Source: Bacteriovoracia bacterium (GTDB lineage: Bacteria; Bdellovibrionota; UBA1018; JBFWNL01). From it: a stretch of DNA of 64,000 bases. The notes beneath the pieces are model-generated. The model ran no database searches, was not told the DNA's origin, and worked only from the letters and a program-made list of their open reading frames with translations. Below, one piece after another: positions 446-38,470 of the stretch. Position 1 is the first letter of the stretch, and each line of letters begins with the position of its first letter. The stretch is from NCBI GenBank assembly GCA_050251055.1, contig JBFWNL010000008.1:96001-160000 (forward strand), given 5' to 3'. Made by a program: the position numbers and the translations under genes.

Positions 446-808
446 AGGGATTGGCTTCCGCTCTCAGCGCTAAACGCGCTTCGGCTGCAGCCCGGCCTCA
501 GGGCGGGCCCGCAAGCGGGCACCCCCGCCCTTCCGGCTTTCACCGCTCGGCCATCGTGGCCTCACTATCCCTATAGCAAGGTACGAAACGCTACGCGTTT
601 CGGCATTATAAACCCACCATTTCTCAGCCACCGCCCGAGAACTTCTCGTCCAACATTCTCTTATAAAAAGACACAAGCCTCAGAGGGGGCATCCGCGGGC
701 CACGAAGGCGCTGAGCGGTTGAGCCCATGGATGGGCGTCCCCATCTGAGGCTTGTGTCTTTTTATAAGAGAATGTTGGCTGGGAAATTGTGGTGCGGTGG
801 CTGAGAAA
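446..808 (-). mobile_element. tRNA-Val 3'-associated structured fold-back element (putatively non-autonomous)
   Basis: 613-634 is the exact reverse complement of 794-815; 567-577 is that of 817-827; 446-453 directly repeats 822-829; 454-540 aligns ungapped with 38193-38279. The repeats are seen directly; mobility is inference. Confidence 0.65.
650..778. repeat. Perfect 35-bp inverted repeat enclosing a 59-nt GC-rich spacer
   Basis: CCAACATTCTCTTATAAAAAGACACAAGCCTCAGA (650-684) and its exact reverse complement (744-778). Confidence 0.95.
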
Positions 809-883
809 TGGTGGGAGCTATAGGGATTGAACCTATGACCTTGACCGTGTAAAGATCCTGCTCTACCGCTGAGCTAAGCTCCC
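809..883 (-). tRNA. tRNA-Val(TAC)
   Basis: Minus strand GGGAGCTTAGCTCAGCGGTAGAGC...TT TAC AC...GGTTCAATCCCTATAGCTCCCACCA; cloverleaf with encoded CCA. Confidence 0.93.
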
Positions 884-959: not shown

Positions 960-5102
<4,143 letters not shown>

Positions 5103-14488: not shown

Positions 14489-14564
14489 TGGAGCTCCCGA
14501 CGGGACTTGAACCCGTGACCTCACCCTTACCAAGGGTGTGCTCTACCAACTGAGCTACAGGAGC
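14489..14564 (-). tRNA. tRNA-Thr(GGT)
   Basis: GCTCCTGTAGCTCAG...CACCC TT GGT AA GGGTG...GGGAGCTCCA. Confidence 0.95.
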
Positions 14565-14595
14565 ACCTAGTTCAACACCTTTTCAGACGTTGAAC

Positions 14596-14672
14596 TGGAG
14601 CGGGAGACGGGACTCGAACCCGCGACCCTCAGCTTGGAAGGCTGATGCTCTAGCCAACTGAGCTACTCCCGC
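14596..14672 (-). tRNA. tRNA-Gly(TCC)
   Basis: GCGGGAGTAGCTCAG...TCAGC CT TCC AA GCTGA...CTCCCGCTCCA. Confidence 0.95.
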
Positions 14673-14735
14673 AAACTGCTCTCACTCCACAAATCCGAAA
14701 ACCAAAACTTTCACGGCACGCTCCACGCAAAAGTG

Positions 14736-14821
14736 TGGTGGAGAGGGAAGGGTTCGAACCTTCGAAGGCGTGAGCCGCCAGATTTACAGTCTGGTCCCTT
14801 TGACCGCTCGGGAACCTCTCC
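14736..14821 (-). tRNA. tRNA-Tyr(GTA)
   Basis: GGAGAGGTTCCCGAGCGG...CCAGA CT GTA AA TCTGG; long variable arm; CCA end. Confidence 0.95.
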
Positions 14822-14850
14822 GTCTCACAAACATTTTGCGCAACAATAAG

Positions 14851-14926
14851 TGGAGCTGGAGAAGGGACTTGAACCCATAACCTGCTGATTACAAATCAGC
14901 TGCTCTACCAATTGAGCTACTCCAGC
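14851..14926 (-). tRNA. tRNA-Thr(TGT)
   Basis: GCTGGAGTAGCTCAA...GCTGA TT TGT AA TCAGC...CTCCAGCTCCA. Confidence 0.95.
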
Positions 14927-37967: not shown

Positions 37968-38045
37968 GGACCCGTAGCTCAGTTGGATTAGAGCGCCACA
38001 CTACGGATGTGGAGGTCATAGGTTCGAACCCTGTCGGGTCCGCCA
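37968..38045 (+). tRNA. tRNA-Arg(ACG)
   Basis: GGACCCGTAGCTCAG...CCACA CT ACG GA TGTGG...GGTTCGAACCCTGTCGGGTCCGCCA. Confidence 0.95.
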
Positions 38046-38444
38046 TTTCTAAAGTTCCTGTCTTCATTCAAATTCTACAAATAAGTAACTAAGCCCCTGA
38101 GACATCACTACGCGTGCGTAAGCGCACTTTAGAAATGGCGGAGAATACAAAAGGCAAAACGCGAAGCGTTTTGTACCTTACGACAGGGTTCGAAAGGCGG
38201 AAGCCGCCGGGTGCCCGCTTGCGGGCGGCGGCTGAGCCCGGCCTGCAGCCGAAGCGCGAGGAGCGCTGAGAGCGGAAGGCGAACCCTGTCGGGTCCGCCA
38301 TTTCTAAAGTTCCTGTCTTCATTCAAATTCTACAAATAAGTAACTAAGCCCCTGAGACATCACTACGCGTGCGTAAGCGCACTTTAGAAATGGCGGAGAA
38401 TACAAAAGGCAAAACGCGAAGCGTTTTGTACCTTACGACAGGGT
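38025..38444 (+). repeat. Perfect 165-bp direct repeat starting inside tRNA-Arg (period 255 bp)
   Basis: 38025-38189 equals 38280-38444. The copies are separated by a 90-nt GC-rich structured segment. Confidence 0.95.
38046..38444 (+). mobile_element. tRNA-Arg 3'-associated structured fold-back element (same family as 446-808)
   Basis: 38126-38142 is the reverse complement of 38039-38055; 38181-38194 is that of 38023-38036; core 38193-38279 is homologous to 454-540. Mobility is inference. Confidence 0.65.
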
Positions 38445-38470
38445 CGATAAATTGGCAGGTGAGCCAAACA

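Follow-up and report, generated by a model that had tools for sequence, protein, structure and literature searches.

tRNA genes are classic landing sites of mobile DNA, and to our knowledge each of the known elements at such sites has a sequence-specific integrase that ties it to a single tRNA. In the rtT region behind Escherichia coli tyrT, tandem units follow the tRNA gene and each of them carries a copy of the tRNA 3' end; we know this arrangement from that single locus and know of no antisense copy or structured core in it. REP/REPIN-RAYT and IS200/IS605-derived palindromic elements are small non-coding hairpins that act as single strands, and IS608 chooses its target by base pairing within its own end. 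Template switching at quasi-palindromes (the Ripley model) copies flanking DNA backwards and perfects hairpin arms. The arms of the attP site of phage CTX are spaced by ~90 nt.

In CTX attP, one strand is described as carrying two inverted copies of the target site with a spacer between them, whose folding gives a hairpin resembling the duplex target, with integration using a single-stranded partner in an Xer-dependent manner (PMC3442271, PMC3089051). Integron attC sites are reported to be recognised as a folded single strand whose structure is kept more than its sequence, with the choice of strand being important and resolution being replicative (PMC4792948). Islands at tRNA genes, including tycheposons and cis-mobilizable elements, are described as lying at tRNA 3' ends, duplicating the tRNA tail, and piling up in tandem (10.1101/2020.12.28.424599).

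Here we describe small elements (~190–400 nt, non-coding, and without an open reading frame) that combine inverted copies of a tRNA tail with a conserved structure. They were met in a 64,000-nt stretch of DNA (the window) from a Bacteriovoracia bacterium whose genome, G000, is 93.5% complete. The constant parts are a mini-hairpin (hairpin A) and a two-domain core of ~85 nt, and the variable parts are two inverted arms of nt 56–76 of the local tRNA. Hairpin A breaks the antisense arm (nt 76–56) at nt 68/69, and the sense arm starts from C56 directly after the core.

Units behind two tRNA genes of the window

An earlier note on this DNA had described a fold-back element behind tRNA-Val, and direct reading of the sequence located all of its segments where the note had placed them (Table 1). 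Inverted repeat I1 has 77-nt arms (613–689 and 739–815) that are 90% complementary, and the insert that replaces nt 69 comprises an AT-rich linker (602–612), hairpin A (585–601), and a conserved GTACCTT (578–584). Folded as a single strand, the region took the form described in the note (z = −13.9 for RNA, −14.4 for DNA). The nested palindrome that the note had included in the element was present, but its loop (module P) proved to be a separate repeat that occurs also away from tRNAs, with 29 BLAST matches in G000, of which 15 were 34–69 nt behind tRNAs and the rest elsewhere. Module P had a raised sequencing depth in the DNA runs, and an ordinary terminator hairpin occupies the place of the nested palindrome in relatives.

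Table 1 Features of the tRNA-Val and tRNA-Arg loci (window positions).
Feature	Position	Strand	Evidence or remark
tRNA-Val(tac)	809..883	-	ARAGORN; Rfam tRNA, 62.6 bits; nt 56–76 are the copied part
Flank F and proximal palindrome arm	739..808	-	Inverted repeat I1; arm extends into tRNA nt 70–76 at 809–815
Palindrome loop (module P), separate nested repeat	690..738	-	BLAST
Distal palindrome arm, antisense of flank F	620..689	-	Inverted repeat I1
Antisense of tRNA nt 70–76	613..619	-	Direct reading; pairs with tRNA tail in RNA and DNA folds
Insert replacing nt 69 (linker, hairpin A, GTACCTT)	578..612	-	Alignment A2, pair counts (helix 1)
Antisense of tRNA nt 58–68	567..577	-	11/11 match; inverted repeat I4, 11 nt, 100%
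Extra 24-nt hairpin	543..566	-	Alignment A2; absent in the other 23 aligned copies
Antisense of tRNA nt 54–57	539..542	-	Last two A's perhaps core instead
Core, two irregular hairpin domains (P0 around P2; P1 around P3)	454..538	-	RNAalifold; pair counts; covariance model, 122 bits
Sense copy of tRNA nt 56–63, 8 nt from C56	446..453	-	Closes core stem against antisense arm
tRNA-Arg(acg)	37968..38045	+	ARAGORN
Complete unit at tRNA-Arg	38046..38279	+	Covariance model, 161 bits
Full sense copy of nt 56–76, then second unit, 100% identical, truncated in antisense arm	38280..38445	+	

The unit behind tRNA-Arg consists of a flank with a loop, the antisense of the flank and of nt 70–76 (38127–38142), a linker, hairpin A (38156–38172), the antisense of nt 54–67 (38181–38194), and the core (38195–38279). 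Its sense copy, from 38280, continues into the truncated second unit, and the locus amounts to 1.65 tandem units of 255 nt. Direct reading confirmed that the segments at tRNA-Val and tRNA-Arg follow one order, despite the differing tRNA sequences. The finer register claimed for both loci agreed in part. The split of the antisense copy falls at nt 69 behind tRNA-Val, but behind tRNA-Arg the unpaired gap spans nt 68–69 because position 68 is mismatched. Likewise, the antisense arm said to end at T54 is present, but its last two A's could equally be core sequence, T54 and T55 being universal in tRNAs. The 8-nt sense copy at tRNA-Val is, on its own, weak evidence. The expectation of further copies in this register was borne out by all 22 tRNA-linked copies, from 14 genomes, which had 9–13 nt of linker between anti-70 and hairpin A and in which the sense copy started at C56.

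Antisense copies of tRNA tails exceeded chance in G000. A 7-base exact antisense of the tRNA end was found within 300 nt downstream for 12 of the 44 tRNAs counted (of 45 in the genome), compared with 34 of 1814 mismatched tRNA/flank pairs. The main argument against an assembly chimera, a possibility raised in the earlier note, is that 19 other genomes have the homologous architecture. The assembly also agrees with contigs from two DNA runs of one study, which tile 300–679, 650–740, and 749–1100 with zero differences, although these runs are not independent support because they are probably the source sample of the assembly.

A conserved structure with arms matched to the local tRNA

In G000, BLAST placed copies of the core or hairpin A at 10 places, all 3' of nine tRNA genes and co-oriented with them, and a covariance model gave eight strong and two weak matches, all at these tRNA loci, in agreement with the proposed tie between the modules and tRNAs with locus-matched arms. 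Across the order (Bdellovibrionota MAGs), the model found the element in 20 of 116 genomes and 19 of 70 genera. Among the best 30 loci, 22 had a co-oriented tRNA 25–260 nt upstream, and at least 14 anticodons were represented. Public MAGs and metagenomes were searched with a pattern placed inside the P2 hairpin of the core, and 24 further loci were examined, comprising 12 of the 17 matches on public-MAG contigs and all 12 metagenome matches. The 3' end of a co-oriented tRNA was 94–245 nt upstream of the pattern in 17 of them and a tRNA was 844 nt upstream in one, while six had none in the available flanking DNA. Viral contigs searched with the core pattern gave no matches.

Tandem arrays were found at tRNA-Arg and tRNA-Gln of G000 and in genomes G030, G007, G031, and G011. 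At the orthologous rpoC/tRNA-Val locus, many relatives (e.g., G010, G029, G032, and G019) had the terminator alone, and five had a sense copy of at least 16 nt around a different core. Core types other than the modelled one were noted at the Cys, Lys-ttt, Pro, and Phe loci of G000 and at the tRNA-Val loci of G011, G026, G020, G037, G002, and G013. Two genomes of one genus differed at tRNA-Arg(tct), which was filled in G102 and without the element in G101; the exact insertion borders were unobtainable from this pair because the DNA downstream of the tRNA was unrelated. Core clades grouped copies at different tRNAs within one genome (His and Asp2 in G000, Tyr and a second locus in G025, and three loci in G031), and the Arg and Gln copies of G000 had cores that were 93% identical but unrelated arms. 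The element has spread between different tRNAs. The closest pair in G000 apart from the Arg tandem was 93% identical and therefore does not demonstrate recent activity.

The fold was conserved among copies. In the pair counts, 90.8% of cells were paired, compared with 35–40% when the partners were slid. Compensatory changes were found in 36 of 47 pairs, and none of 500 shuffles attained the observed score; with RNAalifold they were found in 26 of 39 pairs. The two arms paired with each other in 81.9% of cells, with covariation in 8 of 10 pairs. The core is a well-supported new structured motif that is absent from Rfam. A pseudoknot between the conserved GTAC linker and a GGGU bulge, checked by eye on alignment A1, was rejected, as it was not conserved in the His, Asp2, LeuCAG, and Gln copies. 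The arms followed the local tRNA: the antisense arm matched it at a mean of 10.8 of 13 positions, compared with 7.7 of 13 for other tRNAs, and 16 of 22 copies had a sense arm that agreed with it at no fewer than 12 of 13 positions.

Such arms could be imagined as local replication accidents, in which template switching at a terminator hairpin copies the tRNA tail backwards with no dedicated element. Consistent with this idea, arm lengths differ between loci, and the Ala-ggc, Leu-caa, and Ser-gga loci of G000 have a palindrome that reaches into nt 63/66–76 only, with neither hairpin A nor core. However, 20 genomes from 19 genera have the same modules in the same register, with compensatory changes, and an 85-nt conserved core is not created by accident. 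The family-wide conservation largely refutes accidents as the full explanation, which we regard as very improbable, but an accident of this kind may be the step that matches the arms.

In the core helices, G.A/A.G mismatches numbered 98 and C.T/T.C mismatches 0. Because the mismatches are purine-purine, it is the tRNA-sense strand that folds and is under selection. This strand is also the transcribed strand of the tRNA, in line with the main rival explanation, a structured read-through RNA from the tRNA gene (3'-trailer) in which the antisense and sense segments would be closing stems. Such an RNA might serve the cell (tRNA processing, tRNA control, or a decoy) or the element (a guide RNA for homing). 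No terminator stands between tRNA and module in several relatives (G013:C16, with a 25-nt gap, G030, G007, and G031:C50), and the element lies within a tRNA operon (Thr-Tyr-Gly-Thr) in G025 and at two other loci. In many copies a T-run follows a terminal CCA, and the core contains tandem G.A pairs, a G-C-closed CUUG loop, GNRA-type loops, and invariant unpaired bases, all common in functional RNAs. Against an RNA, an intrinsic terminator or a large palindrome separates the tRNA from the module at many loci, promoter prediction gave no sigma-70-like site at the two window loci, there was no Rfam match at E ≤ 10, ribozymes included, and the origin of matched arms at each new tRNA is left unexplained. 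The RNA runs allow no statement on expression because they covered only the tRNA and rpoC, with nothing beyond the tRNA. The apexes of the hairpins also speak against an RNA. The apex of hairpin A conforms to GCGN(N)AGC, the 'mini-hairpin DNA' motif, in 14 of 24 copies. This motif is described as far more stable as DNA than as RNA, and it is reported from the N4 promoter and from sites of single-strand initiation in phage G4 and ssiA (PMC13037366). This apex may be a hint of a single-stranded DNA stage. On balance, we consider a trailer RNA possible but unlikely.

Candidate enzymes and integrase islands

With both window loci searched against Rfam 15 at E ≤ 10, only tRNA reached the gathering score, and all other matches were far below theirs. 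The literature searches gave no named family either, and the architecture, which the earlier note had not recognised, belongs to an apparently undescribed family of tRNA-anchored elements. The note had inferred that constant modules are combined with locus-specific tRNA copies by a dedicated process. The combination itself was upheld by one register at many tRNAs, but the suggested HUH/RAYT and reverse transcriptase routes were not, as no such genes were found in G000. In this genome, no matches were found for Y1 HUH/RAYT (PF01797; control positive in 6 of 14 genomes), TnpB (PF07282), the IS110-type DEDD recombinase (PF02371), the RVT_1 reverse transcriptase, or Rep_trans and MobA-type relaxases. 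The search for the Y2/IS91 transposase (PF04986) also gave no match in G000, but was uninformative because its control was positive in none of 14 genomes. IS91-type elements insert next to GTTC or CTTG, and the junction of our element is at G53-T54-T55-C56 of the T-loop; since this tetranucleotide is universal in tRNAs, it proves nothing on IS91.

Several known classes were rejected on these grounds. A REP/REPIN-RAYT family would be at odds with both the lack of a RAYT match in G000 and the lack of dispersed copies, all strong and weak matches of G000 being behind tRNAs. IS200/IS605-derived elements (PATE) with a TnpB guide RNA were rejected with PF01797 and PF07282 both giving no match in G000, and an IS110 bridge or seek RNA with PF02371 giving none there and the elements having no open reading frame.

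A product of reverse transcription, either a self-primed ('snap-back') second strand on a tRNA 3' fragment or a retron-like one, would fit the antisense-loop-sense topology, and in G006 a gene for a 271-aa RVT_1 protein is ~75 nt from one copy. We rejected this gene as a retron partner, since it is encoded on the opposite strand and terminates a separate island of >14 kb. With no RVT_1 match in G000 and no explanation for hairpin A interrupting the arm at nt 68/69, we find a reverse transcription origin highly doubtful, and a retron was rejected.

The inner borders of the unit are fixed, and the outer ones are variable. Sense copies were 7–133 nt long (7–10 nt in 5 copies, 16–23 in 8, 26–32 in 6, and 45–133 in 3), and in 16 of 22 copies they were at least 19 nt, giving direct repeats of the tRNA tail that flank the unit. 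Ordinary integrase-driven islands could leave such repeats as scars, with attL/attR as partial tRNAs and palindromic terminators making up the rest. Direct repeats of nt 56–76, reaching 0–11 nt past CCA, were present in 14 of 22 copies, tandem accretion was observed, and a large tRNA-targeting tyrosine-integrase family was found in 66 of the 116 genomes of the order. Integrase islands lie between tRNA and module at G013:C18, G007:C10, G024:C74, and G013:C16, and partial tRNAs are described as piling up likewise in tycheposons (10.1101/2020.12.28.424599). However, scars would explain neither the antisense copies, the covarying core, and hairpin A nor the constant split at nt 68/69, and the length of the sense copy is not constant. 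The one integrase family tested was not enriched in carriers, being present in 11 of 20 carrier genomes and 55 of 96 non-carriers, and there was no integrase in cis. No link was found to tyrosine recombinases, whose co-occurrence the earlier note had proposed to test: serine and tyrosine recombinases are present in G000, but none adjoins an element. The module was present at 2 of 30 integrase loci, and there it was outside the island's own partial-tRNA end. We judge integrase att scars to be an improbable explanation. An integrase gene just upstream in four islands had suggested that the module is an arm of these islands; this idea was rejected on finding that every island has a short partial tRNA tail of its own as its end, ahead of the flank of the module.

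A proposed folded attachment site and its closest relatives

The explanation that we favour, tentatively and at somewhat less than an even chance, is a duplicative element that is non-autonomous and whose attachment site, a folded single strand, would mimic the 3' half of a tRNA gene. The tRNA-sense strand would fold into a rod, either as DNA made single-stranded by replication or during uptake or, perhaps, as a transcript that reads through from the tRNA, and the arms in the rod would form a duplex copy of the 3' half of the tRNA gene beside the core. The rod could then act as a folded attachment site comparable to integron attC or to the attP hairpin of phage CTX. Through an exchange with a tRNA gene at the region of its T-loop, the unit would become inserted and nt 56–76 would then be present twice. 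Fold-back (quasi-palindrome) template switching may either maintain the fit of the arms to the local tRNA or rewrite the arm sequences. What we infer from the architecture is a stage as single-stranded DNA, an exchange reaction, and an enzyme for it. Several observations count against the folded site: no candidate enzyme was found among the families searched in G000, the local tyrosine-integrase family is neither enriched in carriers nor regularly accompanied by the module, recent activity is not evident from the copies in G000, a classical att duplication has a constant length but the sense copy is variable, and a trailer RNA accounts for the strand asymmetry as well. Furthermore, T-loop insertion into a new tRNA would create a hybrid tRNA unless the arms were rewritten, and this rewriting is purely conjectural.

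A related but rather unlikely alternative is a self-tailoring homing element, in which the core and hairpin A would be a single-stranded scaffold, of DNA or RNA, and both arms would be written at insertion from the 3' half of the target tRNA itself, starting at C56. With arms written in this way, a single lineage would need no sequence-specific integrase to colonise any tRNA gene. The catalyst might be a host enzyme or the folded nucleic acid itself. If true, site selection would be programmable and templated by the target, a mode that has not been described in bacterial mobile DNA.

The architecture suggests a copying or homing process tailored to each tRNA. One family of tiny gene-less elements stands at 14 or more tRNAs with arms fitted to each, which implies either a new way of rewriting target-matching sequence or a new class of tRNA-linked structured RNA. 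Either outcome would add to the understanding of genome remodelling in predatory bacteria, and programmable targeting, if true, may point to a new tool principle.

Compared with the element, tRNA islands and tycheposons, as described, have neither an antisense tRNA copy nor a structured core; they use their own or a matching integrase, and their att length is constant. Quasi-palindrome template switching supplies neither conserved modules nor a fixed register across genera. In contrast to REP and IS605 types, the element has no Y1 transposase or TnpB match in G000, occurs there in 8–10 copies that are all at tRNAs, and has arms of 21 nt that are locus-specific. It resembles integron attC in its conserved structure and strand preference, but the arms of attC are not copies of the target, whereas those of the element are copies of the target tRNA. 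With CTX attP it shares inverted target-site copies on one strand that are able to pair. Gene-less and 0.2–0.4 kb long, it differs from CTX in having a conserved covarying structure as the spacer. The arms of CTX are dif/Xer sites, whereas those of the element are nt 56–76 of tRNAs, with at least 14 different targets.

Arrangement of the element at tRNA genes

An earlier note, made from the sequence alone, had described a fold-back element built from the 3' end of tRNA-Val, in the same register as one at tRNA-Arg. All of its segments at tRNA-Val were present on the minus strand, and tRNA-Arg shared their order. At tRNA-Arg the sense copy of the tRNA tail was complete and continued into another unit, itself truncated, so that the 255-nt unit is present 1.65 times in tandem. 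When the Val region was folded as a single strand, the tRNA tail paired with its antisense copy and hairpin A branched off, with z-scores of -13.9 (RNA) and -14.4 (DNA).

In relatives, the minimal form began with a tRNA gene with its CCA end and a short flank, often an ordinary two-way intrinsic terminator. Next came the antisense of 6-43 nt of flank plus nt 76-70 and a linker, which measured 9-13 nt in all 22 copies, then hairpin A with GTACCYT, the antisense of nt 68-56, AA, the core, and a sense copy that begins at C56. The element thus had fixed inner borders and a variable outer border. Sense copies measured 7-10 nt in five copies, 16-23 nt in eight, 26-32 nt in six (extending beyond CCA by as much as 11 nt) and 45-133 nt in three, the last being tandem units.

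The antisense arm matched the local tRNA at a mean of 10.8 of 13 positions, compared with 7.7 of 13 for other tRNAs; in 16 of 22 copies the sense arm agreed with it at 12 or more of the 13 positions. At loci with CGAG as nt 56-59 of the T-loop, CGAG also stands in the antisense arm in place of CTCG (G007:C1, G101:C173, G053:C14, G071:C4 and Leu-cag of the source genome, G000), which puts a tandem G.A pair beside the junction with the core. This pattern suggests structural selection on the arms rather than simple copying. Extra mini-hairpins of about 22-24 nt were seen at different places in single copies, in P1/P3 in one relative (G102:C22:56618-56775, L079) and in the antisense arm of the Val copy, where the insert is similar to a portion of module P, the loop of the Val palindrome.

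Coordinates of features in the window, in other contigs (C) of G000 and in extracted loci (L) of relatives
Feature	Location	Coordinates	Strand	Remarks
tRNA-Val(tac)	window	809-883	minus	ARAGORN
Val palindrome	window	613-689 and 739-815	minus	read from tRNA after flank; 77-nt arms, 90% complementary
Module P	window	690-738		
Antisense of tRNA-Val nt 70-76	window	613-619	minus	outer end of palindrome
Val insert	window	578-612	minus	AT-rich linker, 7-bp hairpin A (585-601), conserved GTACCTT
Antisense of tRNA-Val nt 58-68	window	567-577	minus	11/11 matched
Extra 24-nt hairpin, Val copy	window	543-566	minus	
Antisense of tRNA-Val nt 54-57	window	539-542	minus	
Val core	window	454-538	minus	85 nt, GC-rich
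CAATCCCT	window	446-453	minus	tRNA-Val nt 56-63 in sense
tRNA-Arg(acg)	window	37968-38045	plus	ARAGORN
Purine-rich core, tRNA-Cys	G000 C1	239284-239371		no hairpin A
Purine-rich core, tRNA-Lys-ttt	G000 C13	64120-64277		no hairpin A
Purine-rich core, tRNA-Pro-ggg	G000 C6	135840		no hairpin A
Purine-rich core, tRNA-Phe	G000 C8	63871-63948		no hairpin A
Purine-rich cores, relatives	L115, L121, L117, L105, L106, L108			no hairpin A
Reverse transcriptase, 271 aa	L022 (G006:C8)	4286-5101	minus	RVT_1
Adjacent protein, 461 aa	L022 (G006:C8)	2904-4289	minus	follows the reverse transcriptase; no Pfam match

Distribution, tRNA linkage and spread

In G000 (3.77 Mb, 21 contigs, 93.5% complete; window at C8 96001-160000), a BLAST search with two cores and two A hairpins found copies exclusively 3' of tRNA genes and co-oriented with them, at 9 of 45 tRNA genes. 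These were His, Asp (two units ~1 kb apart), Gln-ttg (one full and one truncated unit), Leu-cag, Ala-cgc (partial), Lys-ctt (degenerate), Leu-tag (core truncated), Val-tac and Arg-acg. The downstream search for antisense tail copies that the earlier note had proposed recovered an exact antisense of the last seven tRNA bases within 300 nt for 12 of 44 G000 tRNAs, compared with 34 of 1814 mismatched tRNA/flank pairs; the remaining tRNA had dropped out of the count through a name collision. A covariance model, R1, built from an alignment of 24 copies from 11 genomes, gave eight strong and two weak matches in G000, all at tRNA loci already found by BLAST. Across the order it matched 20 of 116 genomes and 19 of 70 genera (~75 matches in total), with none in the 17 genomes of the best-sampled genus, g11. 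Among the best 30 loci, 22 had a co-oriented tRNA 25-260 nt upstream, representing at least 14 different anticodons, and the other eight had no tRNA within 700 nt.

An exact-pattern scan of public MAGs yielded 17 stretches labelled Oligoflexia, Bdellovibrionia, Bdellovibrionales or Bacteriovoracaceae, and one labelled WWE3; metagenome contigs yielded 12 and viral contigs none. After five genome_contigs records that duplicated contigs already analysed were left out, 24 public loci were inspected: a co-oriented tRNA ended 94-245 nt before the pattern in 17 and at 844 nt in one, and six had none in the available DNA. The modules thus lie mainly behind tRNAs in G000, its relatives and the public collections, contrary to the possibility, raised in the earlier note, that they occur mostly elsewhere.

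Core sequences grouped in part according to genome, rather than by the tRNA they follow. Supported clades joined His and the second Asp copy of G000 (97/84), tRNA-Tyr and a second locus of G025 (97/84), and three G031 loci (100/98); mean core identity was 0.80 within genomes (35 pairs) and 0.71 between them (241 pairs). The Arg and Gln cores of G000 were 93% identical with unrelated arms, and the nearest core was sometimes in another family (first Asp core of G000 and G013:C18, 91% identical). Within one genus, tRNA-Arg(tct) carried the element in G102 and lacked it in G101, where exact insertion borders were not readable because the downstream DNA was unrelated. At the orthologous rpoC/tRNA-Val locus, many relatives had the terminator alone (G010, G029, G032, G019 and others), G000 and G108 had the core of the present element, and G037, G002, G013, G011 and G026 had a sense copy of at least 16 nt around a different purine-rich core, in tandem in G011. 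The design thus extends beyond the type-1 core.

A broader search of G000 for tail copies at individual tRNAs revealed further loci with other cores at Cys, Lys-ttt, Pro-ggg and Phe; at Ala-ggc, Leu-caa and Ser-gga a palindrome stood alone and ran into the tRNA tail. The purine-rich cores without hairpin A lay between antisense and sense copies of the local tRNA tail with the same nt 54/56 borders, showing that the design is built around several cores that look unrelated. Such cores are also found in genus g11, where the type-1 core is missing.

Module P was a repeat separate from the element, with 29 BLAST matches in G000 (including C1:126443, C2:410945, C4:84417 and C9:106055). Of these, 15 lay 34-69 nt behind tRNAs; the others were distant from tRNAs and fell on either strand. 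It comprises ~50 nt with two small hairpins flanking a CATCCATG-like centre and may be a terminator-like or REP-like element; similar loops occurred behind tRNAs in G034, G025 and G102. Small ORFs directly after elements (L003 1700-2045 in G025; G000 C3:91650-91950) encode putative exported proteins, on visual inspection of their translated starts. One was wedged between tRNA-Tyr and tRNA-Gly of a Thr-Tyr-Gly-Thr operon, whose counterpart in the window (14489-14926) lacks any insert.

Folded structure and the selected strand

RNAalifold predicted 39 pairs from the first alignment, 26 with compensatory changes. In a 47-pair structure comprising hairpin A, the arm stem, P0 enclosing P2 and P1 enclosing P3, 90.8% of cells were paired, compared with 35-40% when partners were slid by 1-3 columns, and both sides had changed in 36 pairs. 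The covariation score was 0.465, compared with 0.06-0.09 for the slid versions, and was reached by none of 500 shuffles. Mismatches in the core helices were G.A or A.G in 98 cases and C.T or T.C in none, so structural selection acts on the strand with the polarity of the tRNA. The working form of the structure is thus single-stranded, being either RNA or the tRNA-polarity DNA strand.

The main rival reading, which we consider possible but somewhat unlikely, is that the element is a structured RNA made by read-through. The selected strand is the transcribed strand of the tRNA, a terminator is absent before the module at several loci, the G025 element sits within a tRNA operon, and the core has tandem G.A pairs and CUUG/GNRA-type loops, which are common in RNAs. 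On the side of single-stranded DNA we counted the apex motif GCGN(N)AGC, found in hairpin A of 14 of 24 copies and in P3 of seven of 24. One paper describes this motif as an extraordinarily stable DNA mini-hairpin, much weaker as RNA, that is present at single-strand initiation sites (phage G4, ssiA) and in the N4 single-strand promoter (PMC13037366). No sigma-70-like promoter was predicted at either window locus, and the Rfam comparison suggested in the earlier note matched no family but tRNA at either one (E<=10).

Candidate enzymes and mechanism

The earlier note had also proposed testing for co-occurrence with recombinase or reverse transcriptase genes. G000 had no match to RVT_1, Y1_Tnp, the TnpB nuclease domain, IS110, Rep_trans or MobA-type relaxase; a Y2/IS91 search was silent, as was its control. 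Tyrosine recombinases were present (eight genes, with two large serine recombinases), none adjoining an element. Four islands in relatives carried a tyrosine-integrase gene just upstream of the module. Each island closes with its own short partial tRNA tail ~100 nt past the integrase gene and the module flank begins after that tail. The reading of the module as an arm of the islands was therefore rejected, the islands having inserted between the tRNA and a pre-existing module. This large integrase family occurred in 66 of 116 genomes (11 of 20 carriers of the element and 55 of 96 non-carriers), and the module in two of 30 integrase loci. The short tail copy ~100 nt past the stop codon (L143, L144, L146, L147, L151, L158, L161, L170) often has an inverted partner of its own ahead of it, forming a minihelix-like att end. 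The G006 reverse transcriptase adjoining one copy lies on the opposite strand, where a >14-kb island ends; the island also carries a DNA methylase and a serine recombinase; with the 461-aa protein it looks like a retron-like or defence pair. Domain searches in G000 and the integrase survey across 116 genomes identified no enzyme for the element.

Integrase scars (improbable), replication accidents (very improbable) and reverse transcription (hardly credible) would each account for part of the picture, but each leaves the conserved, covarying modules unexplained. These observations require an element in which selection acts on the constant part as a folded single strand, with arms derived from or fitted to each tRNA. 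Our best account, held tentatively, is that the element is non-autonomous, spreads by duplication and carries a folded attachment site. The folded arms would form a duplex copy of the 3' half of the tRNA gene beside the core, exchange at the T-loop would duplicate nt 56-76, and fold-back template switching would keep the arms matched. A bolder, target-templated reading is unlikely; we retain it because the sense copy, with its fixed C56 start and variable run-on, looks more like primed copying than a fixed att block.

A literature search on Bdellovibrio tRNA-gene islands, folded single-stranded attP, tycheposons and partial tRNAs, structured RNA downstream of tRNAs, and miniature cis-mobilizable elements found tRNA-targeting islands and folded-site recombination and nothing with this architecture, although most subscription journals were outside the search and absence is unproven. 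Among known systems, the proposed duplex of the arms beside the core resembles the inverted site copies of CTX phage attP or an integron attC.
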